The notes under the pieces were generated by a model, which saw nothing but the letters and a program-made list of their open reading frames with translations, was not told where the DNA came from and searched no databases. DNA of 64,000 nt from Candidatus Saccharimonadales bacterium (GTDB taxonomy: Bacteria; Patescibacteriota; Saccharimonadia; Saccharimonadales; OMJO01), in the NCBI GenBank assembly GCA_035480035.1, contig DATIID010000001.1, positions 457,323 to 521,322 of the forward strand. The letters run 5' to 3'. Made by a program: the position numbers and the translations under genes. Below are positions 2,566 through 31,615 of the stretch, piece after piece. Each line of letters begins with the position of its first letter. Within the stretch, counting starts at the first letter, position 1.

Positions 2566-2621
2566 AACAGTATGTGTCCTTACAGCCATTCTAACAGTCA
2601 ATCTTATCAACCAAAAATATC

Positions 2622-2649
2622 TTGATACTTATACCTGTGGTGGTATACT
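2622..2649 (+). promoter_or_regulatory. candidate sigma70-type promoter of the HTH-murA gene
   Basis: TTGATA (2622-2627), 16-nt spacer, TATACT (2644-2649). The GTG start lies 10 nt downstream with no Shine-Dalgarno. Confidence 0.4.
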
Positions 2650-2659
2650 AAACAGCACT

Positions 2660-4186: not shown

Positions 4187-5467
4187 TTAGACAGTTTGGC
4201 CGATACGTTCGGGCGAAATCCAAGTGCCGCGAACTAATTTGCGGTTAGCAATGAACTTGAAGTTGAATAGACAGCGAAACGCTGCAATCACCTGGATCGA
4301 AGTCATGACATAGAAAACTATGTACATCAGTGGTGCTAGCAAAGTCATACGAATTTTGCGGATTAAGGTCATGTGTTCATCACCCCAAAGGGCTAACAGT
4401 AGAAAGCCCGTCATAGTCGCCCACGCAATGATGAATAGAATTGGGTTGTGATACTTTAAAGCCAAGTAAATGAAGTATGTGAAGTAAATTGGTTCAAGTA
4501 GTAGTTGGAATTCGGCCCAAACCGCCATTGGTAAACGTACCCAAGATAGCATCTTGCTATATTTACGATGGCTGTTAAATAACATCTGACGGTTCTGATA
4601 AATGGCTTGTAGTCCACCAAACTTCCAACGATAACGTTGTTTTAACAGACTCTTGTATGTCGAAACCGGTTCGGTATAAACTAACACGTCACTGGCGTAA
4701 TGAATCCGGTTTTCCTTATTACCAAGCGATGCTAATGCCAAACTAAGAGCAATATCTTCAGTCTTCATAGACTCGTCGTAACCGCCAAGTTTATTCATGG
4801 CATCACGTGTGTACATCGCACCTGCCCCACCGACAATGTATTCACTGTTTGAGATATTGTTGAACTTCTTTGAACGAAAACCTCCCAAGAATTCAAACTG
4901 CTGCAATGTACCAAGTATCTTACCGTTATCCATAATTCGGACATTTGGCGACAAAGCGCTTGGTTCATCTTCGATAAAGTGACGAACAGCTCGTGAAATA
5001 GCATAGCGGTCAATCGTACAGTCGGAATCTAGTGTCATGATAATATCACCCCGAGCTTGACGTTTTAGGGCATGGTTTAACGCGCCGGCTTTGCCGCGAT
5101 TAACATGCATATTTAGCAAGCTAATGTTGCGGCTAGGGTGGGCACAAATATATTGCATCACAATTTGACGAGTATTATCGATTGAAGCATCATCGATAAC
5201 AACAATTTCAAATTTCCGGTAAGTACTAGCCAGTAAGCTGTCTAAACACCTTTTGATAACTACTTCCTCGTTGTGGGCCGGAACTAAAACCGTTACCAGT
5301 GGGCGTTTTCGATAAGCTCGACGGTGGGGGTGTTTGCGGCGCATTGACTGACGGCGAATTAAACGCATGTCATAGATGCTGGCACCAATCAATGACATAG
5401 TGCTGTAGGTTAGGCCAATTAAAACTGTCAGGCCAAATAGAATCAAAAGGAAGTTAATTGATACCAT
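4187..5467 (-). CDS. processive family-2 glycosyltransferase (PgaC/IcaA/cellulose/chitin-synthase-like), membrane-embedded
   Basis: It has an N-terminal TM and the motifs VIDDASIDNT, LDSDC, TEDIALS and QRYRWKFGG (the D, DxD, TED, QxxRW series), followed by a C-terminal multi-TM bundle. Confidence 0.8.
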   Translation of the reverse strand: MVSINFLLILFGLTVLIGLTYSTMSLIGASIYDMRLIRRQSMRRKHPHRRAYRKRPLVTVLVPAHNEEVVIKRCLDSLLASTYRKFEIVVIDDASIDNTRQIVMQYICAHPSRNISLLNMHVNRGKAGALNHALKRQARGDIIMTLDSDCTIDRYAISRAVRHFIEDEPSALSPNVRIMDNGKILGTLQQFEFLGGFRSKKFNNISNSEYIVGGAGAMYTRDAMNKLGGYDESMKTEDIALSLALASLGNKENRIHYASDVLVYTEPVSTYKSLLKQRYRWKFGGLQAIYQNRQMLFNSHRKYSKMLSWVRLPMAVWAEFQLLLEPIYFTYFIYLALKYHNPILFIIAWATMTGFLLLALWGDEHMTLIRKIRMTLLAPLMYIVFYVMTSIQVIAAFRCLFNFKFIANRKLVRGTWISPERIGQTV

Positions 5468-10582: not shown

Positions 10583-10615
10583 AAAAAGTCCCTCGTAGCG
10601 AGGGGCTTTTTATTT
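10583..10615. terminator. bidirectional rho-independent terminator
   Basis: The sequence is aaaaa-GTCCCTCG-tag-CGAGGGGC-ttttt. An A-run on one side and a T-run on the other let it serve both the CE4 gene (+) and tRNA-His (-). Confidence 0.7.
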
Positions 10616-10691
10616 GGGGCGAACGATGGGGCTCGAACCCACGACATCCAGGACCACAACCTAGCGCTCTACCTACTGAGCTACGTCCGCC
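10615..10691 (-). tRNA. tRNA-His (GTG)
   Basis: Reverse complement: G-GCGGACG TAGCTCAGTAGGTAGAGC..CTAGG-TTGTGGT-CCTGG..GTGGGTTCGAGCCCCAT CGTTCGC-C-CCA. The extra G-1 paired to C73 is typical of tRNA-His. CCA is encoded. Confidence 0.9.
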
Positions 10692-10702
10692 GAACTGGGG
10701 TG

Positions 10703-10731
10703 ATTATAACGTGGTATATCTGTTAATGCAA
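10703..10731 (-). promoter_or_regulatory. candidate promoter of tRNA-His
   Basis: On the minus strand: TTGCAT, 17 nt, TATAAT. The -10 ends 11 nt before the tRNA 5' end. Confidence 0.5.
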
Positions 10732-10735
10732 TAAA

Positions 10736-10840
10736 CTACAAAGACAGAATTATCTCGGCGCCAATCAAAGCAACAGCGCCAATACCTAGCCAGCGCAACC
10801 ACTTCTTCTTATTCGGGTTCGACGGATCTCTCTCAGCCAT
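10736..10840 (-). CDS. possible 34-aa single-TM micro-protein
   Basis: MAERDPSNPNKKKWLRWLGIGAVALIGAEIILSL is below the ORF-track cutoff. TAAAAT lies 6 nt upstream of the ATG. There is no homology evidence. Confidence 0.25.
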   Translation of the reverse strand: MAERDPSNPNKKKWLRWLGIGAVALIGAEIILSL

Positions 10841-10919
10841 ACTTATATTTTACACTTATGGACAATTATTTGCTTAGTCTAAGTTATCTCAACTAAGCCA
10901 AAATTATGCCAATACGTGT

Positions 10920-11162
10920 TTAGTCGCCGGTATATTCGTGTTCAGGCATTAGATGTGCATGGTCATCTCGAACAATTCTGACAACAACTGCTCCAAAGAA
11001 CTTTTCTTTTATCCAATCGGCTTTTTCACCCGTACCAGTACAGTATTTGCCTGTGATTATACTTTCCATTTCACCAAGTGTTCGGGCCCAATCAGAAATT
11101 TGTGCGTATTCACCTTCAGTTGTAATAACGGTTGCGGTCATTCTTTCACGATCATCACTCAT
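10920..11162 (-). CDS. hypothetical protein (80 aa)
   Basis: This is the only long ORF in the tRNA-rich gap. TAAAAT lies 11 nt upstream of the ATG, and no family is recognised. Confidence 0.45.
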   Translation of the reverse strand: MSDDRERMTATVITTEGEYAQISDWARTLGEMESIITGKYCTGTGEKADWIKEKFFGAVVVRIVRDDHAHLMPEHEYTGD

Positions 11163-11251
11163 TGTGAAGTTATATTTTAAACTACTATCTTAAGCGTGCA
11201 AGCATAAGTACTAATGAGAATTTGATATTGATGTCAATGATGATCTATATT

Positions 11252-11327
11252 TGGTACCCCGGGAGGGAATCGAACCCCCAACCTTATGGTTAGAACCCAT
11301 CTGCTCTATCCGTTGAGCTACCGGGGC
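11252..11327 (-). tRNA. tRNA-Arg (TCT)
   Basis: Reverse complement: GCCCCGG TAGCTCAACGGATAGAGC A GATGG-GTTCTAA-CCATA ..GGGGGTTCGATTCCCTC CCGGGGT A CCA. Confidence 0.88.
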
Positions 11328-11332
11328 TTAAA

Positions 11333-11407
11333 TGGTGCGGGATGGGGTAGTCGAAACCCCGTCCTCAGTTTGGAAAACTGATATATTAGCCGTTATACGA
11401 ATCCCGC
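11333..11407 (-). tRNA. tRNA-Gly (TCC)
   Basis: Reverse complement: GCGGGAT..TCAGT-TTTCCAA-ACTGA..GGGGTTTCGACTACCCC ATCCCGC A CCA. Confidence 0.88.
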
Positions 11408-11467: not shown

Positions 11468-13315
11468 ATGCTAAAAAAATTGTGGCAGTTCTTTAAAGAG
11501 TACAAATGGTTGGGCATTGTCATCATTGCCTTGATTATGGCTCTAGTCCTAGAGTTTAGTAAACGTCATGTTTTGGCTCATTGGATTTTAGGGGTAATCT
11601 CAATTATCGCCACCTTGCCACTACTATGGGACATGATAGAAACCATCCGAAGTGGTGGCTATGGTCTCGACATTTTAGCGGTTACTGCCATTGTAGCTTC
11701 GGTAGCCCTGGGTGAATACTGGGCAGGCATTATTATTGTTTTGATGCTAACTGGCGGCGAAGCATTGGAGGACTATGCTGAGGAACGCGCCAAGATCGAA
11801 CTAACGGATTTACTAAAGCGTAAACCGCTCAAAGCTCATCGAATTAAAGGTAATAGAACTTCCGACGTATCGGTTAAACAAATTGCGGTTGGTGACAAAC
11901 TAGTAATTTATCCTGGTGAAGTCGTGCCGGTTGACGGTGTGATTGTTGAAGGCACTTCCAGTTTTGACGAATCGAGTCTTACTGGTGAAAGTTTGCCAGC
12001 CGTTAAGAATATCGAGGACCAACTACTTAGTGGTTCGATTAACATTGAGGGCGCAGTGACTGTCCGTGCTCTGCATACAGCGGCTGATAGTCAGTTTGAG
12101 CAAATAATTAAGCTAGTTAAAGCTGCTGCTTCAAGTCAATCACCATTTGTCCGGTTAGCTGATAAATACAGCATCCCCTTCACAGTTACGGCTTTCATTA
12201 TCGCTGGTGCGGCTTGGGTAATTTCGGGCCAACCAATTCGTTTTTTGGAAGTGTTAGTCGTCGCGACACCATGTCCTTTGTTATTAGCTGCGCCAATTGC
12301 TTTAATCTCGGGGATGAGTCGCTCGGCTAAACACGGCATTATTGTTAAAACTGGCTCAGCCCTAGAAAAACTAGCTCAGATCAAAACTATCGCCTTTGAT
12401 AAAACTGGCACCTTAACTCAAGGCCGCCCAACTGTTAGTACTGTCCAAAGTTTTAACTCTTTCTCTGGTCAAGAAGTACTTGGCCTGGCCGCTGCTCTTG
12501 AACAAAATTCAACACATGTTTTGGCCCAGTCTATTACATCAGCGGCCCAAAAAAAATCAATTAAAATTCCAAAAGCCAAACAGATCAAGGAGATAGCTGG
12601 ACACGGCTTATCTGGACGAGTGCAGGGTAAGACGGTTTTAGTTGGCAGATTATCGCTTCTTAGAGAACATGATGTTTCAATCCCGAAATCAGCCAAATTG
12701 GAATCAATTCAACAAACTGCTACTTTTGTGTCGATTAACGACCGACTAGCCGGCGTAATTAGCTTTAAGGATGAGCTACGACCGGACGCCAAAAACATGC
12801 TTAAGCGTCTGCGATCAATCGGTATTAAGCATACCTTGATGGTCACTGGTGATAATGAAGCTACGGCTAAAAATATTGCCAAGCAAGTTGGGATTGAGGA
12901 TGTTAGAGCCAATTGTTTGCCGGCCGACAAACTGCGGGCCATTGAAGCAATAAAGTACAGACCTGTGGCGTTTGTCGGTGATGGCGTTAACGACGCTCCG
13001 GTTTTAACGGCTTCGGATGTTGGCATTGCTTTGGGTGCTCGTGGCTCAACCGCTGCCAGTGAGTCGGCTGATGTCGTTATTATGCTTGATGATATTAGTA
13101 AGGTCGCCACTGGCATCGAGATTGCTAACCGCACCTTTTACATTGCCAAGCAAAGCATTTTAGTTGGTATATTTATTAGTCTTGGGCTGATGGGCGTGTT
13201 CTTTACTGGGAAATTCAAACCAGTTTACGGAGCGGTGCTACAGGAGTTTGTTGACGTTACAGTTATCTTCAATGCGCTGCGAGCCCACGGTTCGTGGCGT
13301 ACCAAATCATCCTAA
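11468..13315 (+). CDS. heavy-metal P1B-type ATPase without an N-terminal metal-binding domain, TPCP transmembrane motif
   Basis: It has DKTGTLT, TGDN and GDGVNDAP, the TM motif VVATPCPLLLAAP, and no HMA (CxxC) domain. A GGAG SD precedes the ATG. Confidence 0.88.
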   Translation: MLKKLWQFFKEYKWLGIVIIALIMALVLEFSKRHVLAHWILGVISIIATLPLLWDMIETIRSGGYGLDILAVTAIVASVALGEYWAGIIIVLMLTGGEALEDYAEERAKIELTDLLKRKPLKAHRIKGNRTSDVSVKQIAVGDKLVIYPGEVVPVDGVIVEGTSSFDESSLTGESLPAVKNIEDQLLSGSINIEGAVTVRALHTAADSQFEQIIKLVKAAASSQSPFVRLADKYSIPFTVTAFIIAGAAWVISGQPIRFLEVLVVATPCPLLLAAPIALISGMSRSAKHGIIVKTGSALEKLAQIKTIAFDKTGTLTQGRPTVSTVQSFNSFSGQEVLGLAAALEQNSTHVLAQSITSAAQKKSIKIPKAKQIKEIAGHGLSGRVQGKTVLVGRLSLLREHDVSIPKSAKLESIQQTATFVSINDRLAGVISFKDELRPDAKNMLKRLRSIGIKHTLMVTGDNEATAKNIAKQVGIEDVRANCLPADKLRAIEAIKYRPVAFVGDGVNDAPVLTASDVGIALGARGSTAASESADVVIMLDDISKVATGIEIANRTFYIAKQSILVGIFISLGLMGVFFTGKFKPVYGAVLQEFVDVTVIFNALRAHGSWRTKSS

Positions 13316-13981: not shown

Positions 13982-14058
13982 TGGTCGGGGATGCGGGATT
14001 TGAACCCACGACCTCCGCGTCCCGAACGCGGCGCGCTACCAGGCTGCGCTAATCCCCG
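13982..14058 (-). tRNA. tRNA-Pro (CGG)
   Basis: Reverse complement: CGGGGAT TAGCGCAGCCTGGTAGCGC G CCGCG-TTCGGGA-CGCGG ..GTGGGTTCAAATCCCGC ATCCCCG A CCA. Confidence 0.9.
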
Positions 14059-14120
14059 AGAATGCCAGCATTATACCAACTAATAGAATACTGGCTAATA
14101 AATCTATTGGTTTTTGTAAA

Positions 14121-15524
14121 TCATTCAAGAACCGTATCAAGTGGGTGCAAATATATTCTGTCAGTACCAGACCAGTCAATGTCAACATCCCCGGCTCTTT
14201 CTTGGATCAAATCACCTCGAATCTTTGCCCTGGTATCTACAGGCGGTGAGTTTCGTCTTTTATCGGCAGTACGTGGAGAGTGTTTTGTTTTGAATCCTTG
14301 CCATCCAACGACGTTTTTATTTCTTAAAGTTTCAGCGATACCGCCGCCAATCCAGTCCCATGCATAATCAAAGCGGCACATTTTCTCCGAATACAACTTT
14401 ACACCTTCTTTACCCATCTTCTTGCGCATAGCTATCATTCTGGCAACTGATTCAACCTGGTTAGCAACTGATTCAGGATTGTCCGACATTCTATCCGCAA
14501 CATCAATAATTTCAGGCAAAACTTGTTTAGCCTCATCATCTAGTACTTCCAGTTCTTCATTAGCATCAAGTACAATCTCACATATTTCCTTCAGAATATT
14601 GAGTGGTTTTTCACCCTCATGTTTCTCGTTCTCCCTATATACGGCAATTTGATTCTTATATCCGTATTGACCAACTATATGGGCTGCCTTTACTGGGTTA
14701 CGAAGTATAGGGAAATCAGTGTTTTCATCTTGTTCAATTACTCTTAGTAAAGAATTTGTAATTACCAAGCTAGCCCTCAGCGGCCAAGCAAAGCTTAACG
14801 CATCGCTCGTAACAGTTTCCACGCGGGCTAGTTCGCCATCTTCTTTAAACGGATATCTGACTAATGGTCTCTGTTGGTAGTTTTGATATGTTGCGCCAGT
14901 AATTGATGTGATTGAAAGCCTAGGCGAATGATGAAAATCAGTTTTACCTCTATCGTTTATCAATAAACCACCAGAGCCAAACATTGCACCTTTAGCTACA
15001 TTTAAAGTCGCAAGAGCACTCATAACGATTACTGAAGGAATGTCAGCTGGCAAACTAGTAGTATTGTTAAGATGGATTCCTCGCGAAGTGCGATTATGGT
15101 CGACAATTCTTCTATTTAATTGAAAATCCTGCAACACGCCTGATTCTCTCAAGCGACCAAACAAATCCAGCATTATGTCGTCGCCATCAAATACTCGATG
15201 TACCGCTTCCTCAGCAGTTGACGTTTCGGGTGTTGCATATTCGGGACCACTCGGATCAATGTAAAACCTGCCTCCGTTGGATAACATGCCTGATGGATTA
15301 CTATATAATCCCATATCCTCAAGTACATCAGTTATGCTACTACGATCAATGTGGTCAGTACCTTTTGACTTGGGTTCCTTGTACAGTCCCAAGGGCTCGT
15401 CAATGGAGTGGCACTTGCCAACAATTTCGTATGTCTTATCACCAGGTAGCGTAAACATTGCCGAGTATTCAGTTTCTACTCCGTAGACATTCGGTGTTTC
15501 AGCTCTTTTAGACATGAATGCCAT
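14121..15524 (-). CDS. Pup-ligase/deamidase family protein (PafA/Dop homologue)
   Basis: YGVETEYS (compare GIETEFG), NGGRFYIDPSGPEYATPE (compare NGARLYLDVGSHPEYATAE), and a C-terminal PPVDTRAKIRGDLI...DIDW block as in PafA. GGGAG lies 4 nt before ATG 15524; the longest ORF starts at 15557. Confidence 0.75.
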   Translation of the reverse strand: MAFMSKRAETPNVYGVETEYSAMFTLPGDKTYEIVGKCHSIDEPLGLYKEPKSKGTDHIDRSSITDVLEDMGLYSNPSGMLSNGGRFYIDPSGPEYATPETSTAEEAVHRVFDGDDIMLDLFGRLRESGVLQDFQLNRRIVDHNRTSRGIHLNNTTSLPADIPSVIVMSALATLNVAKGAMFGSGGLLINDRGKTDFHHSPRLSITSITGATYQNYQQRPLVRYPFKEDGELARVETVTSDALSFAWPLRASLVITNSLLRVIEQDENTDFPILRNPVKAAHIVGQYGYKNQIAVYRENEKHEGEKPLNILKEICEIVLDANEELEVLDDEAKQVLPEIIDVADRMSDNPESVANQVESVARMIAMRKKMGKEGVKLYSEKMCRFDYAWDWIGGGIAETLRNKNVVGWQGFKTKHSPRTADKRRNSPPVDTRAKIRGDLIQERAGDVDIDWSGTDRIYLHPLDTVLE

Positions 15525-15560
15525 AATGCTCCCGTTTGTAAAAGCATGCAAGCACAAGCA

Positions 15561-15589
15561 AATAAAAAAGTACTCTGTAAAAGTACTTT
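15561..15589 (-). terminator. AT-rich rho-independent terminator after tRNA-Pro(TGG)
   Basis: On the minus strand: AAAGTACT-tttacag-AGTACTTT followed by TTTATTT. Confidence 0.45.
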
Positions 15590-15594
15590 ATAAA

Positions 15595-15671
15595 TGGTCG
15601 GGGTGAGAGGACTCGAACCTCCGACCTCCGCGTCCCAAACGCGGCGCGCTAGCCAACTGCGCCACACCCCG
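15595..15671 (-). tRNA. tRNA-Pro (TGG)
   Basis: Reverse complement: CGGGGTG TGGCGCAGTTGGCTAGCGC G CCGCG-TTTGGGA-CGCGG ..GGAGGTTCGAGTCCTCT CACCCCG A CCA. Confidence 0.9.
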
Positions 15672-15798: not shown

Positions 15799-16599
15799 CT
15801 AGGCAATTATCTTCTGAATATGGGTGATTGATTTAGCTAACATGGTTTGGTCATCACTTTTGATTAAAACGGCGTTAAATTGAAATGGACCCTCCGTTTC
15901 TAATTGGTTGGGACTAACTTTGCCATCTCGCCAACGATTTATAATCGTTTCAAGTTTAACGCCTAAACTGGAATTCAATGAGCCACACATGCCAACGTCA
16001 GTAATATGTGCTGTGCCATTTGGCAAAACCATAGCGTCGGCTGTTGGCACATGCCAATGATCGCCAATAACAGCCGTGGCACGTCCATCTAAGTAGTAAC
16101 CAATTACTCGCTTTTCACTGCTAAAGTCACCGTGGAAGTTAACGATGGTAGCAATCGATTTAACATGTTTGGTGTCTCCTAGAATTTTATCGATAGTAAT
16201 CAGTGGATTATCAACTGGTTTATCAGCATCACGGCCGACTATTTGACCAAGTAGACTAACAATCAACACCGGACCTTTGAGTGTTTGAAAATACTTGTAG
16301 CCCTTACCGATTGTGCCGATCGGATAATTAGCCGGACGAATCACTGGCCGATCCGGATCATTCAGGTATGTATGGAGTTCGCTACGATGGGTTGTCCAGT
16401 TGCCGCCGGTAAAAAAATCAACGCCAATTGCTTCAAGTCTTTTGAAATCTTTTAGTGATAGACCTTTACCCTCAGTCACATTCTCACCTTGAGCAATTAT
16501 TAACTCAACCTTGTGCTTAGCAACCACCTCTGGCAAAACTCGCCGTACTACTTCAATACCCGGTTCTCCCATAATGTCACCAATGTAAAGGATATTCAT
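15799..16599 (-). CDS. ymdB: YmdB-family metallophosphoesterase (2',3'-cyclic-nucleotide phosphodiesterase-like)
   Basis: The N-terminus MNILYIGDIMGEPG... and the overall length are typical of the YmdB family. It lies in the rny neighbourhood, as in Firmicutes. Confidence 0.75.
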   Translation of the reverse strand: MNILYIGDIMGEPGIEVVRRVLPEVVAKHKVELIIAQGENVTEGKGLSLKDFKRLEAIGVDFFTGGNWTTHRSELHTYLNDPDRPVIRPANYPIGTIGKGYKYFQTLKGPVLIVSLLGQIVGRDADKPVDNPLITIDKILGDTKHVKSIATIVNFHGDFSSEKRVIGYYLDGRATAVIGDHWHVPTADAMVLPNGTAHITDVGMCGSLNSSLGVKLETIINRWRDGKVSPNQLETEGPFQFNAVLIKSDDQTMLAKSITHIQKIIA

Positions 16600-16602
16600 A
16601 TA

Positions 16603-17238
16603 TTACAACTCAAAGCTTTGGCCATCAACGGTCTTAATGAATTTGATTTGGTTGCGGTCAAAGACTGATTCAAACATATCATACGAACCAGACCGTGCTT
16701 GATCGTTCCAGTGCCAATCATGCACTGGGAATATGCTTTTAGGCTTTAGCTTTAAAGCCATATTTGCGGCCTCCAACATCGAACCCCATGGGGCGGTCGC
16801 CGTTAAAGCCAAAATTTCTTTTGACTCTTCTAAATCGTGACGGTCGCCTCCAACTGTCAATTTATCTGCAAAATGAACTGCAATGTTTTCCGGCGCTTCA
16901 CCAAATGGTGCCAATGGGGCGTGACGTTTTGTCGAAAATATCTTTATAAATTCGTTGCCTTCACTGCTGGCATTTTGAATACCATTTTCCGAAAGTTGTT
17001 TAACTACACTTGGCGTGGTGATAATTTGAACGTTGGGGAATTTTTTTACCAGTGCTTGGATCGCTGGTAGATGAAAATGGTCAAAATGTTCATGGGTTAT
17101 GACGATAGCATCAAGTTTGTTTAAGTTATCTATATTTATCAAACCCGAATCCCACGAGAAAGAGCCGGGGTCAAACAACGCTACTTTATCACCTTCCTCG
17201 GCTAATACACAGGCGTGTACAAACTTAGTTAGCCTCAT
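16603..17238 (-). CDS. MBL-fold metallo-hydrolase
   Basis: It carries the HxHxDH motif (ITHEHFDHF) and later His/Asp ligands. Confidence 0.7.
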   Translation of the reverse strand: MRLTKFVHACVLAEEGDKVALFDPGSFSWDSGLINIDNLNKLDAIVITHEHFDHFHLPAIQALVKKFPNVQIITTPSVVKQLSENGIQNASSEGNEFIKIFSTKRHAPLAPFGEAPENIAVHFADKLTVGGDRHDLEESKEILALTATAPWGSMLEAANMALKLKPKSIFPVHDWHWNDQARSGSYDMFESVFDRNQIKFIKTVDGQSFEL

Positions 17239-17831
17239 ATTTTTCTCCTTTCTTCAATCCACTTAGGGGTGGCTGTGAAAGTTATTTTACTCATATGATC
17301 AACCTCTTCTTCAGTTAAATCATACACAGCTTGGTACGCGACTTCGACACTTCCATGAACTGCCTTAGAAAAATCTAAGTCTAATTTAGCAGCAACTTTC
17401 TTGAGCGCAGCTTCATTTTTTGCTTCTAGTTCGACAAACGGTGGAATCCATGGCCACTCATCAAGTTCAATTTCAACGTCATCTAAAATCCAGCTTTCAC
17501 GCTTGGTTTCCTGATAGGACGTTTCTTTTAAGCCCAGAGCCTTTAAAAACTCTTCAGCACTGTTAAAGCTATCAATTGTCAAGTTAACTTCTTTTGTCCC
17601 ATGCAAACTGCGATCATTAAGCTGCTTGTACGTCAGTGTAATTTTGTTGCCTTCATCCCGCACCCTGACCCAGCCAGCCACTTGCCGTTCCAGTTGATGG
17701 TCTGGAAAATCAAAATTTTTACGCTTCATTAACCGTTCCGACTTGACCAGTTTGGCGTTCAAAACCTTTAATTTAGAACGCAATTTTGCGAAATCAATAT
17801 TTAAAAATTTTGCTTCAATCTCCGTCTGCAT
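17235..17831 (-). CDS. CYTH-domain protein (CyaB-type cyclase / triphosphatase family)
   Basis: It has the N-terminal ExExK signature (TEIEAKF) and a length of ~200 aa. Confidence 0.65.
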   Translation of the reverse strand: MQTEIEAKFLNIDFAKLRSKLKVLNAKLVKSERLMKRKNFDFPDHQLERQVAGWVRVRDEGNKITLTYKQLNDRSLHGTKEVNLTIDSFNSAEEFLKALGLKETSYQETKRESWILDDVEIELDEWPWIPPFVELEAKNEAALKKVAAKLDLDFSKAVHGSVEVAYQAVYDLTEEEVDHMSKITFTATPKWIEERRKI

Positions 17832-17848
17832 AACTCTATTGTAACTGA

Positions 17849-18013
17849 TTAGAGCTGGAGATTCTTGTTTTTAGAAACTTGCCCGCCTACACCAAAGGCT
17901 GCACCTAGCAAACCGATAATTAAACCAACTATCAATCGACCAAAAATTAATACAATGGTCCCAATTAAAACTAATACGGCAGCGACAATGAAAAACAATT
18001 TCCAGAATTGCAT
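17849..18013 (-). CDS. small two-TM membrane protein (54 aa)
   Basis: MQFWKLFFIVAAVLVLIGTIVLIFGRLIVGLIIGLLGAAFGVGG. The longer ORF-track form (to 18157) overlaps the rny 3' end and is rejected. Confidence 0.45.
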   Translation of the reverse strand: MQFWKLFFIVAAVLVLIGTIVLIFGRLIVGLIIGLLGAAFGVGGQVSKNKNLQL

Positions 18014-18059
18014 CGGGTTTGGGTCTTCAACTTTGTCTGGTTTGTTTGGCACGACTGAC

Positions 18060-19574
18060 CTACTTGGCAAACTCGATGGCTCGGGTTTCACGAATAACGT
18101 TAACCTTGATGGTACCAGGGTATTGCATGGTTGATTCAATCTTTGTCGCAATATCACGGGCTAGTTTAATAGCACTCAAATCATCGATATCCTGTGGTCT
18201 AACAAATACCCGGACTTCACGACCGGCACTAATGGCGTAGGATTTTTCAATACCCGGAAAACCGTTGGCTACATTTTCCAGATCTTTCATGCGCTCAGCG
18301 AAATTCTCGGCGCTGATATTACGTGCGCCAGGACGCGATGCGCTGATGGCATCAACAACCCGAACAATCAAAGCTTCAGTAGTAGTTGCTTCCATATCGT
18401 CGTGGTGGGCTTCGGCAGCATGAGCAACCTCTTCAGGAGCACCGTATTTACGAAGCATTTCACCACTAATGTGGTGGTGCTTACCTTCAATCTTATGGGT
18501 TAATGCTTTGCCTAGATCGTGAACTAGGGCGGCATACTTAGCGGTCTTAACATTGGCACCCACTTCTTCGGCGATGATGCCTGCAATGTGCGCCATTTCA
18601 GTACTGTGTTTCAAAACATTTTGGCCATAACTAGTTCGGTACTTTAATTCACCAAGAAGTTGCAAAATTTCGCGTGGGATACCAATGATACCAACTTCGC
18701 GAGCAGCATCTTCACCAGCACGCATGACATCTTTTTGGACATTGGCTTGAGCTTTCTCAACTATTTCTTCAATTCGGCCGGGATGAACGCGGCCATCTTT
18801 GAGTAGCATCTCGAGGGCTTGACGAGCAACTTCACGGCGAACTGGATCAAAGCTGCTCAGAATGATCATACCAGGTGTTTCATCAACCATAATGTCGACG
18901 CCAGTCGCTCGTTGCAGAGCTTGAATGTTACGACCTTCCTTGCCGATAATCCGGCCTTTCATTTCCTCGTCTTCCAATTTAACTGAAGTAACTGTACGTT
19001 CGGCGGTGACTTCACTGGACATGCGCTCCATGGCACCAACAAGGATGGAACCGGCCTGTTCTTCGGCTTGATCTCTGGCTTCGTCTTGAAGTTTAGCGAT
19101 CAGGCCGGTCAGATCGCCGCGAATATCGCGTTCGGTCATGGTCATTAATTTTTCAGCCGCTTCGGCTTTAGTCAGCTTGGCGATTTTCTCTAACTTGTCT
19201 TGCTGTTTTTTGCGAATGTCGCGAATTTCATCTTTAAGCTGTTCGATTTCAGTTTCGCCAGTCCGAAGTTTCTCAGACCGTTTATCAATGTCATCGAGCT
19301 TTTTATCAAAAGCTATTTCACGGTCAACTAAGCGTTGCTCGATTTCTTTAAGTTCTTTACGCCGGGTCTGTTCCTCTCGGCGAGTCTTGTCAACATCGGC
19401 ATCGGCTTTTTCCCGAGCTTCATCAACTAATTTTGTGGCTTCTTTTTTGGCTCTTGTTAGTTCTTTATTGGCGGCATCTTGAACTGAGCCTAATTTCTTA
19501 CGCGTGACTACCGTATTGGCACCAAAGCCAACACCAATACCAACCAACGCCAGTACAATGGTAATTGGATCCAT
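18060..19574 (-). CDS. rny: ribonuclease Y
   Basis: It has an N-terminal TM, a long charged coiled coil, a KH domain (GKEGRNIQAL) and an HD domain (LVHDLGK). Confidence 0.93.
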   Translation of the reverse strand: MDPITIVLALVGIGVGFGANTVVTRKKLGSVQDAANKELTRAKKEATKLVDEAREKADADVDKTRREEQTRRKELKEIEQRLVDREIAFDKKLDDIDKRSEKLRTGETEIEQLKDEIRDIRKKQQDKLEKIAKLTKAEAAEKLMTMTERDIRGDLTGLIAKLQDEARDQAEEQAGSILVGAMERMSSEVTAERTVTSVKLEDEEMKGRIIGKEGRNIQALQRATGVDIMVDETPGMIILSSFDPVRREVARQALEMLLKDGRVHPGRIEEIVEKAQANVQKDVMRAGEDAAREVGIIGIPREILQLLGELKYRTSYGQNVLKHSTEMAHIAGIIAEEVGANVKTAKYAALVHDLGKALTHKIEGKHHHISGEMLRKYGAPEEVAHAAEAHHDDMEATTTEALIVRVVDAISASRPGARNISAENFAERMKDLENVANGFPGIEKSYAISAGREVRVFVRPQDIDDLSAIKLARDIATKIESTMQYPGTIKVNVIRETRAIEFAK

Positions 19575-19756
19575 ATTTATCCCCTTAACAATCCTAAGAT
19601 AAGCCAGCAGACATCACTATCACTTCATTAGTCCACGCTTTTCTTAGATATTCAAAATTGATAGAAAAACACTTTCGGACGTTGCTCTCAAACTAGCGCA
19701 TGCATCCTTGTCTAATAACTATACGCTTTTGGTCTCGGCTCGGTCAACCAACTAAT

Positions 19757-20149
19757 TTAGGATTTTGGTAAGGTGATGTGGACTGGTGAACCATAATCCG
19801 GTACCACTAATTTTTCATTTTGGCCATCTAGAAGTGCTTGAATTCCACGCTCTTGCCAATCATTATTTTGGGCGCCAATTATTGGAACACTGAGTGATTC
19901 AGCCAAAGCATTAGCAACTGTTAGGCCAATTCTTAGCCCAGTAAAACTGCCTGGGCCCTTAAAGCAAATAATACCTTCAATATCCGACCAGTCTTTTTTT
20001 TGATTTGTTAGTAAGTCATAAATTTTAGTGTGTAGAGTTTCGGCTAGCTGGCGATGAGCGGTCCAAATCTCATATTTTAATTTGGTTTCGTCCACGTAAA
20101 GACCAATTTCGGCTTCGGGTTTGTCGGTGCGTATTGTTAGTATTAACAT
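19757..20149 (-). CDS. tsaB: tRNA t6A protein TsaB, short form (N-terminal domain only)
   Basis: It has GPGSFTGLRIGLTVANALA and is 130 aa, against ~230 aa for typical TsaB. Confidence 0.75.
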   Translation of the reverse strand: MLILTIRTDKPEAEIGLYVDETKLKYEIWTAHRQLAETLHTKIYDLLTNQKKDWSDIEGIICFKGPGSFTGLRIGLTVANALAESLSVPIIGAQNNDWQERGIQALLDGQNEKLVVPDYGSPVHITLPKS

Positions 20150-20619
20150 TATTTTTCGACCAGATAACTTAGTTGCTTAGGATAATTATATTTGAACTCT
20201 CGACGGTTTTTGTCTAGGACTTTGATGTTAATGGTTAGTCGTTTATTAGGCAAAACATTTTTGACAATGCCAGCCCATTCTATGATGATACTTACGTCTG
20301 AATCATTTAACCAATCAGTTAATTCATTGGCCATTAAGCCAGCGCTAGCCAAACGATAAAAATCAAAGTGAACTAATTTAGATGGCTTATGACCTTTGGC
20401 TGTATATTCGTGGCTGATTGTAAAGCTGGGGCTGGAGACTTTATCTCTACTGCCCATACCTTTGGCTAAACCGCGCACAAAGGTCGTCTTGCCGCCACCT
20501 AGATCACTGATTAGTTCAATAACTTCACCGCCCCGTAGTTTGGAGCCCAGACGTTCGCCGAGTTTTTCGGTAACGTCGGAACTGGTAGAGACGGTTCGCA
20601 ATGTCATGTCGGTATTCAT
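20149..20619 (-). CDS. tsaE: tRNA t6A ATPase TsaE
   Basis: It has the SDLGGGKTTF P-loop, SPSFTI and HFDFYRL. The start is ambiguous (ATG 20628, 20619 or 20607), and every option overlaps the upstream gene's 3' end. Confidence 0.8.
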   Translation of the reverse strand: MNTDMTLRTVSTSSDVTEKLGERLGSKLRGGEVIELISDLGGGKTTFVRGLAKGMGSRDKVSSPSFTISHEYTAKGHKPSKLVHFDFYRLASAGLMANELTDWLNDSDVSIIIEWAGIVKNVLPNKRLTINIKVLDKNRREFKYNYPKQLSYLVEK

Positions 20620-22741
20620 ATGCTGCATATCCTACCGCGAGCACCCCAACACCAGCAAGTATATTAGTATGTAGTGAACCAGGTATTAAAGGCGTGTTGT
20701 CATTACTTGATCCAATAGCGGCATTAGTTTTGGACTTAGTCGATTTCGGTTTTTTAGCAGCTTTCTTTTTAGTAGTTTTCTTTTTAGTTTTGGTTGATTT
20801 TTTATTAGACTTGGTCGACCCCGATGATACCGTTGGCTGAGTATAAACGTTGGTTGCTCCAGCTGTCGGTGAGCCAGTCCATTGCCAAGTACCATCAATT
20901 TTTGCCCAAGCTTCACCTTCTGGCGCATCACTATATGGATCCGTTTGGCTTATGACCGTACCATTTGAATCGATTAGTCTCGCTTGGCCGCTGGCATTAG
21001 CCAATGACAAATTAGTATCACCACTAGTTAAAACCAAATACTCACCAGCTGGGATTGATTGGTTTTGTATGGTGTAACTATAGCTGTAACTCGAGCCAGT
21101 TTGGACTTTATAACCAGTTAGGTCTAGATTGCTCGATGATGGATTGTACAGCTCAACATATTCATTAATTTCATCAGTTTGCGGCGATGCTGGGTTTGGT
21201 AATAACTCACTAATAATCACTGGCGAAGTGGTATTAGGAGAATCAGTCGGTTGATTATTATCATTATCTGGTACCGGAAACTCGGTTGGTTGTGGTGTAC
21301 CAGTATCAGTGGCGACTGCACTATTATCAAGTTCCGGTGTCGGCGTAGCCAACCAACGCCAACCACCATCAAAGCGTGCCCAACTCTGGCCTTCAGGCGC
21401 GTCTTGATATTGAAAAGTTTGAAGCGGCACAAAAACGCCATTGTTGTCAAAACGACCCCAGCTGACAGTACTAACGCCACTGTTTTTTAGCGACAAGCTA
21501 TGAATTGAAGTACTATCACTGAAATCATAATAAACACTATATTGATTTGGACTCAAAAATTCATCAGATCCAAATTTGTACTGGGTGCCATTAACAACCA
21601 CGCCACAATAGCCCAGGAAGGCAGGTTGATCAGTGGTTGTGGTCAGTTCAAGCCATTCGTTACCTGTATCGTCGCCAACCGGATTAGGTATAATCTCGTC
21701 AATAACTGCGTCAGTACAAGCGTCAGACGGTACCAACAGCGGATTACTGCTAGCAATGCTTGGTACTGTTTGTAATTTGTTAGCTGAGCCTAAGGTCACT
21801 GCATAAGTGGCCTTCCAGCTGCTTGAAAATTTAGAGTAGGTCTGGTCAGCCAACAAAACTGGTTGGGTAACTAAACTGTTGATAATTGGTAGTGTTACAT
21901 TACCATAATCGCTAGCGGGCCAGAATTCTAGGGTATTAGCAAAGTCGGCGTTCAGTGGCACGGGGATGATATCTGACAATACATCCACGACGTTTTCAAT
22001 AACTCCAAGTGGTTGGTCGGTTTGTAGATCGCCAGTAGCTAGGGCAAATAAACTGCTGTTGATTAAGATTGGACAGTCGGTTGCTAGATTGGCGCCAGTG
22101 GCTTTCACTATTTCTAGTGCCGGAGTTATGTCACCACCATTGCCATTAATCAACATAGGTTGAATTTCGTTTAGTGATAGGCCATTACATGGGTGAGCGG
22201 AAACCTCAAAATCATTGCTGTTAATGTCACTGTCTAAAAATAGACCGTAATTATCTTGTTTTCGAACTAATGATGAACCTTTAGGGTGAGCAGGTGCGGT
22301 TGTACCTGTAAAAGTTGAGTCGGTGATAATGCCCCAACTAATCTCATCTAATATGATTGCTCCTTTAATTAAACGCAAAGTGCCGCCTTGGTCTGCTAGG
22401 GCTAAACCAGTCGGGAAACCACTAAGACTAGGGTTGGCAGACTTTAAACTGTCGGACACGAACGATAACGTATTATGAGCAGGCAGATTGCCAAACAAAT
22501 TAATAATTTTGGAATTAGGCGTACCACTAGCTGTCCAATATTTAATGATTACGCCGCTAAGGTCATAGTTATTATCGGTATTGTTAGCGACGATAATGTA
22601 ATCCTCGCCAGTACTATTAAAACCTTGAGTTTGCACATCGACGATACACAAACTACAAGTCGGTGAAATTGAGTAAGCTTTTAATGGCAAAACGATTAGC
22701 AGAGCTGTCACCACCCAGGTGAGTAGCACTAATCGCCTCAT
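20525..22741 (-). CDS. secreted, C-terminally membrane-anchored protein with three lamin-tail-domain (LTD) repeats and a Lys-rich juxtamembrane tract
   Basis: It has a signal peptide (MRRLVLLTWVVTALLIVLPLKAYS) and LTD signatures IDEIIPNPVGDDTGNEWLEL and ISELLPNPASPQTDEINEYVELYNPSSSNLDLTGYKV, plus a degenerate first copy. These are followed by KSNKKSTKTKKKTTKKKAAKKPKSTKSK, a TM and a basic tail. Confidence 0.75.
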   Translation of the reverse strand: MRRLVLLTWVVTALLIVLPLKAYSISPTCSLCIVDVQTQGFNSTGEDYIIVANNTDNNYDLSGVIIKYWTASGTPNSKIINLFGNLPAHNTLSFVSDSLKSANPSLSGFPTGLALADQGGTLRLIKGAIILDEISWGIITDSTFTGTTAPAHPKGSSLVRKQDNYGLFLDSDINSNDFEVSAHPCNGLSLNEIQPMLINGNGGDITPALEIVKATGANLATDCPILINSSLFALATGDLQTDQPLGVIENVVDVLSDIIPVPLNADFANTLEFWPASDYGNVTLPIINSLVTQPVLLADQTYSKFSSSWKATYAVTLGSANKLQTVPSIASSNPLLVPSDACTDAVIDEIIPNPVGDDTGNEWLELTTTTDQPAFLGYCGVVVNGTQYKFGSDEFLSPNQYSVYYDFSDSTSIHSLSLKNSGVSTVSWGRFDNNGVFVPLQTFQYQDAPEGQSWARFDGGWRWLATPTPELDNSAVATDTGTPQPTEFPVPDNDNNQPTDSPNTTSPVIISELLPNPASPQTDEINEYVELYNPSSSNLDLTGYKVQTGSSYSYSYTIQNQSIPAGEYLVLTSGDTNLSLANASGQARLIDSNGTVISQTDPYSDAPEGEAWAKIDGTWQWTGSPTAGATNVYTQPTVSSGSTKSNKKSTKTKKKTTKKKAAKKPKSTKSKTNAAIGSSNDNTPLIPGSLHTNILAGVGVLAVGYAAYEYRHDIANRLYQFRRYRKTRRTSGLQTTGR

Positions 22742-25218: not shown

Positions 25219-25248
25219 TTGAATGAAAAACTGGTTATGGCTTATACT
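25219..25248 (+). promoter_or_regulatory. candidate promoter of pilB (short or no leader)
   Basis: TTGAAT (25219-25224), 18 nt, TATACT (25243-25248). ATG 25259 lies 10 nt downstream with no SD. Confidence 0.45.
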
Positions 25249-25258
25249 TAATCTAACA

Positions 25259-27076
25259 ATGCGTATATCTGATACTTTGGTGGAAAAGCTATTAGTTACT
25301 GGTGGTTTGGTTAATGCTGAACAACTTAAGAATTTACATAATCAGGTAGCTAACGAAAAGAAGCCATTTCAAGATATTGTAATCCAAAATAATGTTATTT
25401 CTGAGAAAGACCTAACAAAACTCTACGCCGCTGAAATTGATGTACCGTTTATCGAGCTTAATGCTAAAGAAATTAAGCGTGATATTTTGAAAAAAATCCC
25501 TGAACGGATTGCTCGCCAATATCGCGTAGTGTTGTTTGGTGTTGATAAAGACGACTCTAAGCTACTGGCTATGGAGGACCCCGATGACATTCAAGCGCTG
25601 AACTTTCTTCAGAAACATCTTGGTGATCAGATTAAAGTTTTCTTGGCGACCGGTAGTGCGATCCAATCGGCTTTAGAGCTATACCGCGGTAATATCGGCA
25701 GCGAATTAACAAAGGTCATGGAGCCAGAGTCTGATGAAGAAGCGGCTGAGGAAGAGATTGACGAAAACGATTTAGCTGAAGATTCGCCAATTGCCCAAAC
25801 TGTTAATTTAATTATTGAGTACGCGATTAGTGCCGGTGCCAGCGACATTCACATTGAACCGCGCGAAGACAATGTGATTGTGCGCTACCGGGTTGACGGT
25901 ATTTTGCGCGAGGCCAATAAACTGCCTAAGAAAGTCCACGGCGCTCTAGTGTCGCGTATCAAAATTTTATCAAATCTAAAAATCGATGAACGCCGGGTAC
26001 CGCAAGACGGTCGATTCAAAATTCAAGTTGGTGGTACAGTTTACGCCTTAAGAGTATCGACCTTACCAATTGCCGAGGGCGAAAAGGTGGCCATGCGTAT
26101 TTTGAATGAGTCAAGCAAAGCATCGGAACTTGGTGAACTTGGTTTTTGGGGTAGTTCGGGAGCAGCTATTAAAGAAACAATCCAGTCGCCACACGGTATG
26201 ATTTTAGTCACTGGACCGACCGGTTCGGGTAAATCGACAACTCTGTTTAGTATATTAAGCATCCTGAACAAACCATCAGTTAACATCTCGACCGTTGAAG
26301 ACCCTGTCGAATATAAAATCCCGGGTGCTAATCAAACCCAGGTTAATCCAAAAGCCGGCATGACCTTTGCACTTGGCTTACGGGCGTTACTACGCCAAGA
26401 CCCAAACATTATCATGGTTGGCGAGATTCGTGACCTGGAGACAGCTGATTTAGCGGTTCAGGCAGCTTTAACCGGTCACTTAGTGTTTGCCACCCTACAC
26501 ACCAACAATGCCGCCACTTGTCTGCCACGGCTACTAGATATGAAAATCGAGCCATTTCTGATAGCTAGTACTGTTAGAGCAGTGGTTGGCCAACGTTTAG
26601 TTCGACGTTTGTGCGTTGAATGTCGCGAGAGTTATCAACCAAATGACGCTGATATGAAGCTAATTAATAATATTTTTGGAACTAGCGACCCGACTATAAT
26701 GAAACGAGTTCATGAGCTGGAAGAGCAAGCTAAGACCGACGGCATTGGCAATGCTAACCCTTCAAAGCAACAGAAAAAACCATCGGATGATAGTCTAGGC
26801 AGTACTAGTACTGGCATCACTCAACTTTGGCGAGCCCACGAAAATGGTTGCGAAGTCTGCGGCCACACCGGCTACAAAGGTCGTATCGGTATTTATGAGG
26901 TACTGCCCAGTTCTAGTGAGATTCAAAAATTAATTGTTAGCAATGCAACCAGTGATGTATTGCAGAATGAAGCCGTTAAAGACGGCATGATTACGATGCA
27001 GCTTGACGGTTTTATAAAAGCTTTGCGTGGTCAAACTACGGTTGAAGAAATTCTAAGAGTAACGGTTGAAAAATAG
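25259..27076 (+). CDS. pilB: type IV pilus assembly ATPase PilB (GspE family)
   Basis: It has an N-terminal T2SSE_N-like domain, Walker A GPTGSGKST, MVGEIRD, the His box GHLVFATLHTN and a tetracysteine site (CVEC...CEVC). Confidence 0.9.
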   Translation: MRISDTLVEKLLVTGGLVNAEQLKNLHNQVANEKKPFQDIVIQNNVISEKDLTKLYAAEIDVPFIELNAKEIKRDILKKIPERIARQYRVVLFGVDKDDSKLLAMEDPDDIQALNFLQKHLGDQIKVFLATGSAIQSALELYRGNIGSELTKVMEPESDEEAAEEEIDENDLAEDSPIAQTVNLIIEYAISAGASDIHIEPREDNVIVRYRVDGILREANKLPKKVHGALVSRIKILSNLKIDERRVPQDGRFKIQVGGTVYALRVSTLPIAEGEKVAMRILNESSKASELGELGFWGSSGAAIKETIQSPHGMILVTGPTGSGKSTTLFSILSILNKPSVNISTVEDPVEYKIPGANQTQVNPKAGMTFALGLRALLRQDPNIIMVGEIRDLETADLAVQAALTGHLVFATLHTNNAATCLPRLLDMKIEPFLIASTVRAVVGQRLVRRLCVECRESYQPNDADMKLINNIFGTSDPTIMKRVHELEEQAKTDGIGNANPSKQQKKPSDDSLGSTSTGITQLWRAHENGCEVCGHTGYKGRIGIYEVLPSSSEIQKLIVSNATSDVLQNEAVKDGMITMQLDGFIKALRGQTTVEEILRVTVEK

Positions 27077-27078
27077 CC

Positions 27079-28293: not shown

Positions 28294-28301
28294 ATCAGCC
28301 C

Positions 28302-28329
28302 TTGACCGTTTAGCGCTTACGGTTATAAT
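28302..28329 (+). promoter_or_regulatory. strong promoter of the major pilin gene
   Basis: TTGACC (28302-28307), 16 nt, TATAAT (28324-28329). It is followed by a ~55-nt leader ending in an AGGAGGG SD. Confidence 0.6.
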
Positions 28330-28390
28330 CATTAGTTAGATCCAATAAGGTCTTCATTAAAATAACAATTACATAGGAGGGTGGGCTCCA

Positions 28391-28846
28391 ATGGTCTCAC
28401 TACATAGAAAACAACGTGGTTTCACAATCGTGGAACTATTAATCGTGATCATCGTGATCGGTATCTTGGCGACACTTGTCTTGGTAACCTTCACCGGCGT
28501 ACAACAAAAAGCACGTAACACGCAACGACAAACAGATATTAAGGCAGTGGCTAGCCATCTTGAGGCTTACAATGCCAACAATGCCGAATATCCAACTTTG
28601 GCAAATATGAACGATGCTGCATGGGTAGCTGCCAATTTGAAAGGTCTAGATAAAGAGTCAACTCGCGATCCTAATGGCACGCTTTACACTTTTGCGGGAT
28701 CATCTACATCGAATCAGTATGGTTATGGCCCAACTAAAAGTGACGGCACAGCTTGCGACAACACCACCGGTAACGAGTGTGCTAAGTTCACACTCACTTA
28801 CAGTGAAGAAGGTGGCGCCCAGAAGACTGTAAACAGCCTTCAATAA
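28391..28846 (+). CDS. pilA: major type IV pilin
   Basis: It has the prepilin leader MVSLHRKQRG|FTIVELLIVIIVIGILA (the G-F-T-x-x-E class III signal), its own promoter and its own terminator. Confidence 0.88.
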   Translation: MVSLHRKQRGFTIVELLIVIIVIGILATLVLVTFTGVQQKARNTQRQTDIKAVASHLEAYNANNAEYPTLANMNDAAWVAANLKGLDKESTRDPNGTLYTFAGSSTSNQYGYGPTKSDGTACDNTTGNECAKFTLTYSEEGGAQKTVNSLQ

Positions 28847-28862
28847 AAAGGTTCTAAAACTT

Positions 28863-28890
28863 AAACCGGGCTAAACTAGTCCGGTTTTTG
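28863..28890 (+). terminator. rho-independent terminator after the pilin gene
   Basis: AAACCGGGCT-aaact-AGTCCGGTTTTTG. Confidence 0.75.
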
Positions 28891-28907
28891 TATAATTAAG
28901 CATAAGC

Positions 28908-31552: not shown

Positions 31553-31615
31553 AATGCCTTGCCTGTACAAGGGTAAGTATCTGATATACTTGATAGCATA
31601 AGCGTCATTAATGCT

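Follow-up and report, generated by a model that had tools for sequence, protein, structure and literature searches.

Gene organization at the locus

The stretch analysed here, hereafter the window, comprises 64,000 nucleotides of contig DATIID010000001.1 from a Candidatus Saccharimonadales bacterium (assembly GCA_035480035.1), and our subject is a single gene within it that belongs to the PafA/Dop family of pupylation enzymes (Pup_ligase, PF03136). The gene occupies positions 14121-15524 of the minus strand and encodes 467 amino acids from an ATG start, with a GGGAG Shine-Dalgarno sequence 4 nucleotides (nt) upstream; an alternative in-frame start, the upstream TTG at 15557, would extend the product to 478 amino acids. 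Together with its close homologues it forms a clade, which we call type A, that is a separate, monophyletic and highly diverged branch of PF03136 encoded by a single free-standing gene.

The gene lies between two proline transfer RNA (tRNA) genes, an arrangement given in a preliminary description of this DNA and reproduced here with ARAGORN. The tRNA-Pro(CGG) gene (13982-14058, minus strand) lies 62 bp downstream of the open reading frame (ORF) and the tRNA-Pro(UGG) gene (anticodon TGG in the DNA; 15595-15671, minus strand) 70 bp upstream, both co-oriented with the ORF. Likewise, the motifs quoted in that description (GVETEY, NGGRFYIDPSGPEYATPE, IHLNNT, PPVDTRAKIRG and DIDW) are all present in the translation. 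The two tRNAs are different isoacceptors, 79% identical over an 80-nt repeat that is the sole notable direct repeat at the locus. Neither an att-like partial duplication nor an integrase was found at this locus, and the GC content across it is flat (0.42-0.44). For lack of an att repeat, an integrase or a GC shift, we reject a mobile-element origin of the tRNA bracket in the window. A promoter-like site with an extended -10 element, a consensus match only, lies at 14097-14070 (minus strand), upstream of tRNA-Pro(CGG).

Family membership and phylogenetic placement

The PF03136 profile matches the 467-residue protein with 113.8 bits over residues 13-452 and profile positions 2-438 of 441. This is far over the cutoff of 25 bits, the limit on which the preliminary description had made its assignment depend, and full-length membership of the PafA/Dop family stands. 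An identical sequence (100%) already stands in NCBI under the homology-based name 'proteasome accessory factor PafA2 family protein [Candidatus Saccharimonadales bacterium]'.

A sequence search listed 141 matches, about 100 of them (counted as 90%-identity clusters) at 39-67% identity over the full length, beyond which there is a sharp fall to 30% or less. Among the matches listed, all named members of the type A clade are Saccharibacteria. A profile search of 1.84 billion representatives gave 1590 PF03136-like clusters at E<=1e-3, only 48 of them at E<=1e-30. A neighbour-joining tree of 154 sequences recovered the type A family as monophyletic, its nearest relatives being a few sequences that include one 'Candidatus Saccharibacteria bacterium CPR2'. 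In this tree the canonical Dop and PafA sequences grouped in a clade of their own, and about 100 further PF03136 clusters belonged to neither. The distribution of type A is patchy, with 14 loci among GTDB species representatives, and an alignment of 36 members at 38-67% identity contains 49 invariant columns.

Scores on the equivalog models are low: 77 bits on the Dop model TIGR03688, whose cutoff is 492.3, and 54.5 bits on the PafA model TIGR03686, whose cutoff is 551.3. Three other type A members reached 67.6-75.3 bits on the Dop model, against 573 for a control Dop from the deltaproteobacterial locus L026. A profile search of the PDB gave the window protein 74 bits for Dop and 50 for PafA, and its identity to actinobacterial Dop/PafA is about 20-25%. 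Judged by these comparisons, the window protein is an ortholog of neither Dop nor PafA.

Active-site residues

In Dop from A. cellulolyticus the Mg ligands are E8, E10, Y92, E99, H155 and H241, and the catalytic residue is D94 (PMC8599861). A profile alignment places these ligands, in the same order, at E17, E19, Y88, E95, H151 and E236 of the window protein, and D94 at D90; these residues vary little or not at all among 26-36 sequences of 38-67% identity. The first pair lies in the GhExE motif G15-V-E17-T-E19 (15468-15482, minus strand), the predicted strand-1 Mg/ATP ligands equivalent to Dop E8/E10, with both glutamates present in 26 of 26 core sequences. The segment N83-G-G-R-F-Y88-I-D90-P-S-G-P-E95-Y-A-T-P-E100 (15225-15278, minus strand) would supply the catalytic Asp and the Tyr and Glu metal ligands, with a 4-residue spacer in between; Y88, D90, E95 and E100 are invariant and equivalent to Dop Y92, D94, E99 and E104. 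Also conserved in type A are R202, R219, R223, R234, D241, R432, R436 and W451. R219 (R or K) corresponds to PafA R201, the arginine that salt-bridges the C-terminal carboxylate of Pup.

Strand 4 carries H151-L152-N153 (15066-15074, minus strand), in which H151 and N153 are invariant, while residue 152 is L, I or T in type A and E in the canonical enzymes. From the reading IHLNNT in place of HENY, the preliminary description had suggested that the chemistry may differ, and this was not borne out. The strand-4 motif of the superfamily is [HQ]x[NH] (Iyer 2008, PMC2588565), and we reject altered chemistry because the middle residue of that motif is free and the HEN glutamate is missing from the list of Dop Mg ligands. 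As far as the alignment tells, the actual active-site difference is on strand 6, where the motif E236-T-V-T-S-D241 (14802-14819, minus strand) has a Glu, the type of ligand seen in glutamine synthetase (GS) and GCS, in place of the Dop/PafA His ligand H241. The residue is Glu in 25 of the 26 core type A sequences and His in 14 of 14 Dop and 7 of 7 PafA. Strand 6 has been described as [QH]x4D in PafA and as Ex[RK]x2D in the rest of the superfamily (Iyer 2008, PMC2588565). The window protein contains the complete superfamily set, GhExE, Y88/D90/E95/E100, H151-L-N153 and E236-x4-D241, with E rather than H or Q as the first strand-6 residue.

Type A also has nearly invariant motifs of its own that are absent in Dop and PafA, namely E-x-V-G-x-C38-H39-S-x-D42, C383-R-F-D-Y-A-W-D and H198-H199-S-P-R. 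These Cys/His motifs might bind a metal or serve as an additional catalytic or regulatory element.

Predicted fold and the distinction between Dop and PafA

An AlphaFold2 model of the protein, built on the type A family alignment, has a predicted local distance difference test score (pLDDT) of 88.8 and a predicted template modelling score (pTM) of 0.91. When compared with known structures by Foldseek, it matched Dop (4b0r, 5lrt and 7oyh) with template modelling (TM) scores of 0.74-0.77 and PafA (4bjr) with 0.73-0.75, aligned over 444-503 columns; the runners-up were YbdK/GCS2 (TM 0.44) and GS (0.30-0.35). The predicted fold consists of a GS-like N-terminal domain and the small C-terminal domain specific to pupylation enzymes. 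In the latter, P-P-V-D-T-R-A-K-I-R-G (14214-14246, minus strand; P428, T431, R432, A433 and R436 invariant) aligns with 'PPNDTRAYFRG' of Dop and 'APDTTRAHLRG' of PafA, and W451 is equivalent to Dop W453. The model recovers the Dop/PafA fold, and all metal-ligand positions and the catalytic Asp are occupied and conserved.

Three features tell Dop from PafA: the Dop loop ahead of strand 2, the surroundings of the catalytic Asp and the alpha-loop (Hecht 2020, PMC7947786; Cui et al.). Behind that Asp, PafA carries an additional residue, a Val, compared with Dop (Hecht 2020 Table 1, PMC7947786). At the Dop-loop position the window protein has an insertion of residues ~21-80 (15285-15464, minus strand) that carries E-x-V-G-x-C-H-S-x-D-x-x-L-G-L-Y (residues 33-48). 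Within it G36 is invariant and C38, H39 and D42 are conserved in at least 90% of sequences; residues 39-50 have low pLDDT in the model, and the segment is probably flexible. Measured from GxExE to NG, the median distance is 63 residues for 97 type A members, compared with 78.5 for Dop and 38 for PafA. Four residues separate the catalytic Asp from the following ligand Glu in all 97 type A and all 14 Dop sequences, five in all 7 PafA, and a Pro precedes the final Glu ('TPE') in 79 of the 97 type A members, as in Dop. From the loop insertion and the 4-residue spacer, the type A architecture leans Dop-like, and we infer the reaction direction from this.

Search for Pup, the proteasome and other partners

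Pupylation is regarded as a process of Actinobacteria, along with Nitrospirae and a handful of other groups, whose genes for the enzyme, for Pup and in most cases for the proteasome lie side by side. No such partners were found around the window gene. A scan for ORFs of 30-140 amino acids ending in GGQ, GGE or G[QE] gave no Pup-like candidate in the 64-kb window, and none appeared in the window or in 404 kb of homologue loci when endings in GGQ/GGE, G[QE] or any Q/E were accepted; no resemblance to Pup was seen in the small ORFs adjoining the homologues P0130 and P0142. Pfam annotation of the whole window, obtained from precomputed matches for the identical NCBI contig CAZNEB010000007.1 together with our own scans, contained no proteasome subunit (PF00227) and no Mpa/ARC (Prot_ATP_ID_OB). 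Searches by tblastn with Mpa, Dop, Pup, PrcB, PrcA and PafA against the window and the loci from the candidate phyla radiation (CPR) recovered only the PF03136 genes themselves and the AAA modules of FtsH and RuvB. As a positive control, the deltaproteobacterial cluster around P0110 (L026) was recovered in full, comprising Mpa, Dop, an 87-residue Pup ending in YVQRGGE, PrcB, PrcA and PafA. That the 64 kb hold no Pup-like ORF, proteasome subunit or Mpa/ARC is in line with the preliminary description, which had seen no small ORF ending in GGQ/GGE and no proteasome subunit there.

The same description had pointed to RimK, another C-terminal Glu ligase, and this gene is indeed in the window. It encodes an ATP-grasp protein of the ribosomal protein S6 glutamate ligase family (41542-42447, minus strand), and the gene for a PF05618 'putative ATP-dependent Zn protease' (42452-42874, minus strand) is immediately upstream of it. 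A link between RimK and the PF03136 gene was considered and discarded: the two are 27 kb apart, RimK is paired with its own Zn-protease-like gene, and there is no sign of a connection. A role in anti-phage defence was likewise set aside, PADLOC giving no match.

Genomic context of the homologues

The context of the gene was examined at 22 independent loci of type A or its nearest CPR relatives; a metagenome scan contributed 9 mostly short loci. An all-against-all BLAST of ORFs of at least 35 amino acids from 16 loci revealed no conserved protein-coding neighbour. The recurring BLAST neighbours were dismissed as partners, being just shadow ORFs inside the gene and paralog-rich two-component genes. 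No Pup-like ORF, proteasome gene or Mpa gene lies beside the homologues among the examined loci, and the PF03136 gene stands alone in every flanked locus. This contrasts with the described systems, in which the Pup gene is 'invariably' adjacent to the PafA-family gene (PMC2588565).

The tRNA-Pro bracket itself is not conserved among homologue loci. At 6 of the first 21 loci, however, the PF03136 gene has a co-oriented tRNA no more than 250 bp away, where about 0.5-1.1 such loci would be expected by chance (binomial P 9e-6 to 7e-4, a figure that covers both PF03136 types described here). Besides the two proline tRNAs of the window (13982-15671), these are Glu at L009 (5116-5190), Ser at L011 (9862-9951), Glu at L016 (9833-9907), Thr and Gly at L025 (11452-11698), and Phe and Gly at L031 (9879-9954 and 11503-11578). 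Co-transcription with tRNAs and residence in tRNA-linked variable regions are both possible explanations.

A further free-standing type resembling PafA

Most of the non-canonical PF03136 clusters differ from type A and form what we call type B. They are PafA-like: the median loop is 40 residues, 82 of 104 have the 5-residue spacer, HEN and the strand-6 His are retained, and scores on the Dop/PafA models are 147-264 bits. About 100 metagenomic non-canonical clusters have 25-33% identity to Dop/PafA. Several type B proteins come from Saccharimonadales, and their genes too are free-standing.

The only locus seen with both types is the soil contig pair L039/L040, on which a type B gene (2769-4130, minus strand) stands divergently beside a truncated type A gene of 233 amino acids (4272-4973, plus strand). 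On L039 a 135-residue ORF ending in ...LLDLLAPE (2334-2741, minus strand) lies downstream of the type B gene. Among the matches listed, the two types otherwise share no large contig, despite contigs of 0.88-0.97 Mb for each, and most Saccharibacterial genomes provisionally seem to carry one PF03136 gene of one type.

Comparison with known systems

Compared with Dop (TIGR03688; 4B0R, 5LRT, 7OXY), the window protein shows the same predicted fold, C-terminal domain included, and keeps the GhExE motif, catalytic Asp, Tyr/Glu/His ligands and arginines, together with the 4-residue spacer after the Asp, the Pro of 'TPE' and a long insertion ahead of strand 2. It differs in its identity of about 20%, its non-homologous loop and the replacements of H241 by Glu and of the HEN Glu by Leu; its gene, moreover, has no adjoining pup, mpa or prcBA and belongs to Saccharibacteria, not to Actinobacteria or Nitrospirae. 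With PafA (TIGR03686; 4B0T, 4BJR) it shares the fold and the active-site residues, including R219 (R or K) for R201. Unlike PafA, it lacks the extra residue after the Asp and carries a loop of ~25 additional residues where PafA has none, and there is no adjacent Pup gene.

Single-copy homologues equally far from Dop and PafA (29-31%) have been reported in Planctomycetes, beside homologues that are only sporadic in other phyla (Hecht 2020, PMC7947786). These and type B resemble type A in being single-copy and, for several, free-standing, also in Saccharimonadales, whereas type B is set apart from type A by its PafA-like spacing, strand-6 His, retained HEN Glu and higher Dop/PafA scores.

Enzymes of this family can work without a 20S proteasome, as in Corynebacterium. 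PafA/Dop neighbourhoods lacking proteasome genes also exist in Plesiocystis and Rhodopirellula (Iyer 2008, PMC2588565). Such proteasome-less pupylators, Bifidobacterium among them, share with our locus an enzyme without a 20S proteasome; unlike it, they encode Pup beside the enzyme and usually ARC/Mpa, neither of which was found near the window gene. Finally, GCS2/YbdK and GS share the superfamily fold, the Mg/ATP chemistry and the strand-6 Glu, but reach TM scores of just 0.30-0.45, have no such C-terminal domain and act on small molecules. The 467-residue protein has no Pfam match to the GCS2/YbdK or GS families.

Proposed function and alternative explanations

The conserved motifs and the predicted structure suggest that the gene apparently encodes an intact PafA/Dop-type enzyme and not a relic. 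Our preferred reading, to which we give a probability of roughly one half, is that it is a catalytically competent, highly diverged PafA/Dop-type enzyme of the GS-fold carboxylate-amine ligases that acts on the C-terminal Glu or Gln of an unlinked partner, without a proteasome. Mechanistically, and by analogy with Dop, PafA and GS, ATP and Mg2+ would bind in the beta-sheet cradle, and the gamma-phosphate would pass to a side-chain oxygen, carboxyl or amide, on a Glu or Gln whose alpha-carboxylate is free. The substrate would be the C-terminal Glu or Gln of a peptide or protein encoded elsewhere, since the arginine that holds this carboxylate in PafA (R201) is kept as R219. Against the acyl-phosphate, D90 would then activate either water, as a Dop-like deamidase or deconjugase, or an incoming amine, as a PafA-like ligase. 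The loop insertion and the absence of an extra residue after the Asp would favour a reaction running as in Dop, or one bifunctional enzyme. As no proteasome or Mpa/ARC was found near the gene or its homologues, the reaction would serve regulation and not proteasomal degradation. A hitherto unrecognised system in which a single enzyme tags proteins with a modifier that is not related to Pup is conceivable, if somewhat doubtful.

Several observations weigh against this reading. The genome is covered over the 64 kb of the window, and the reaction direction is taken from just two structural hallmarks. Of these, the insertion is unrelated in sequence to the Dop loop, having neither W47 nor DFEEE and carrying its own C-H-S-x-D motif; the alpha-loop resembles neither Dop nor PafA, and one type A member, P0099, scores higher on PafA than on Dop. 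Several positions shared by Dop and PafA are also altered (S359 stands for the W of 'DWV', L243 for the N of 'GDAN' and G186 for a K/R), and from these changes binding in the Pup groove may have been lost.

The altered positions would also fit an enzyme that has reverted to, or retained, a GS/GCS2-like role as a small-molecule gamma-glutamyl-type ligase or amidase acting on the carboxylate of a free amino acid or metabolite. The superfamily fold, the strand-6 Glu found in GS/GCS, the lack of a linked modifier gene at any locus and the reduced metabolism of Saccharibacteria, which could use a salvage enzyme, are all in its favour. We nevertheless judge it unlikely, given that the pupylation-specific C-terminal domain is kept with PPxDTRAxxRG and W451 invariant, that the model has a TM of ~0.75 to Dop/PafA compared with 0.44 to YbdK and ~0.3 to GS, and that no metabolic gene is conserved alongside. 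The gene might instead be the Dop or PafA of an ordinary pupylation system dispersed over the genome, with pup, a second PF03136 paralogue and perhaps mpa/prcBA elsewhere; the window covers 64 kb of a 527,750-bp contig, a PafA-like type B exists in Saccharibacteria, and the L039/L040 pairing resembles a ligase/deligase pair. This is rather improbable in view of scores far under both equivalog cutoffs, of types A and B sharing no large contig among the matches listed (0.88-0.97 Mb contigs included), and of the literature searched, which links no Saccharibacteria to pupylation or proteasome accessory factors.

Two further possibilities concern the origin and target of the enzyme. Cultivated Saccharibacteria grow as epibionts on Actinobacteria (PMC10633639), the phylum that pupylates, and because their hosts are Actinobacteria there is a small chance that the enzyme is host-directed, deamidating or depupylating Pup or pupylated proteins of the host after uptake or delivery. 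The Dop-like architecture, the lack of a Pup gene of its own in the window and homologue loci and the restriction of named members, among the matches listed, to Saccharibacteria agree with such a role. Yet no signal peptide or secretion-associated neighbour is present, the identity of ~20-25% to actinobacterial Dop/PafA argues that the gene is not a recent acquisition from the host, several positions that Pup-binding enzymes conserve are altered, the terms PafA, Pup and proteasome accessory do not occur in the Southlakia Tn-seq supplements, and no cultured oral strain is named among the matches listed; we hold this role to be very unlikely. Least credible of all is a decaying relic or pseudoenzyme, or mobile cargo recently inserted between the tRNA genes. 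Loci of tRNA genes are classical integration sites, the distribution over 14 loci among GTDB species representatives is patchy and L039 holds a truncated copy, but the 49 invariant columns among 36 sequences at 38-67% identity include all catalytic residues, GC is flat, no att-like repeat or integrase is present, the tRNAs are different isoacceptors and PADLOC is negative.

Returning to the preferred reading of a competent PafA/Dop-type enzyme with an unlinked partner, its interest lies in a large conserved clade with intact catalytic residues in ultrasmall, genome-reduced Saccharibacteria, with the partner genes not nearby. That a genome of ~1 Mb retains a PF03136 enzyme implies a real function. 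This could lie in a cryptic system that adds or removes tags, in substrates of a class new to the PafA/Dop fold, or in some interplay with an actinobacterial host that pupylates. What is new is a diverged, Dop-like clade without nearby Pup or proteasome genes in an obligate epibiont lineage whose cultivated members have actinobacterial hosts; in the literature searched we found no papers tying Saccharibacteria or CPR to pupylation, PafA, Pup ligase or proteasome accessory factors. Type A further offers a third lineage in which to consider the determinants of ligase versus hydrolase activity, namely the loop, the spacer after the Asp and a His or Glu metal ligand.

Other features of the window and of homologue loci

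The PF03136 gene lies within a tRNA-rich 5-kb stretch that holds 5 of the 7 tRNAs of the window; the second group (His-GTG, Arg-TCT and Gly-TCC; 10615-11407, minus strand) is found just past a P-type ATPase gene. Heavy-metal or copper genes (P1B-type ATPase, CsoR-like repressor, DUF305/DUF4142, DUF4396 and cupredoxin) adjoin the PF03136 gene or lie at most two genes away at three independent loci from two PF03136 clades, and are absent from the other loci. They are at 11468-13315 (plus strand) in the window, at 11477-12630 and 16476-16880 in L004 and at 11789-14517 in L031. These neighbours could reflect a shared variable region or a functional link, and we keep them as a lead only.

The remaining content of the window includes recA/recX, RNase Y, YmdB, the P-type ATPase, ruvABC, comEC, hrcA-grpE-dnaK-dnaJ, lepA, murJ and tilS-ftsH, with FtsH at 54747-56609. 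A type IV pilus cluster (25223-33908, plus strand) encodes a PilB-like T2SSE ATPase, a PilC-like T2SSF protein, a pilin with an N-methylation motif, PilM and several proteins without Pfam matches, and L025 has a comparable cluster (15839-21419) close to its PF03136 gene. On the Saccharibacterial contig L004, four tandem genes of the WhiB family, otherwise typical of Actinobacteria, are present at 18862-20609, and WhiB genes also occur near the PF03136 gene in L027 and L028. Finally, a repeated family of ~95-100 amino acids with the motif ...HVFDM(S/T)DG..YRLEF...WTLV is encoded near the PF03136 gene in L011 (8134-8436) and, in tandem, in L016 (13456-14011).

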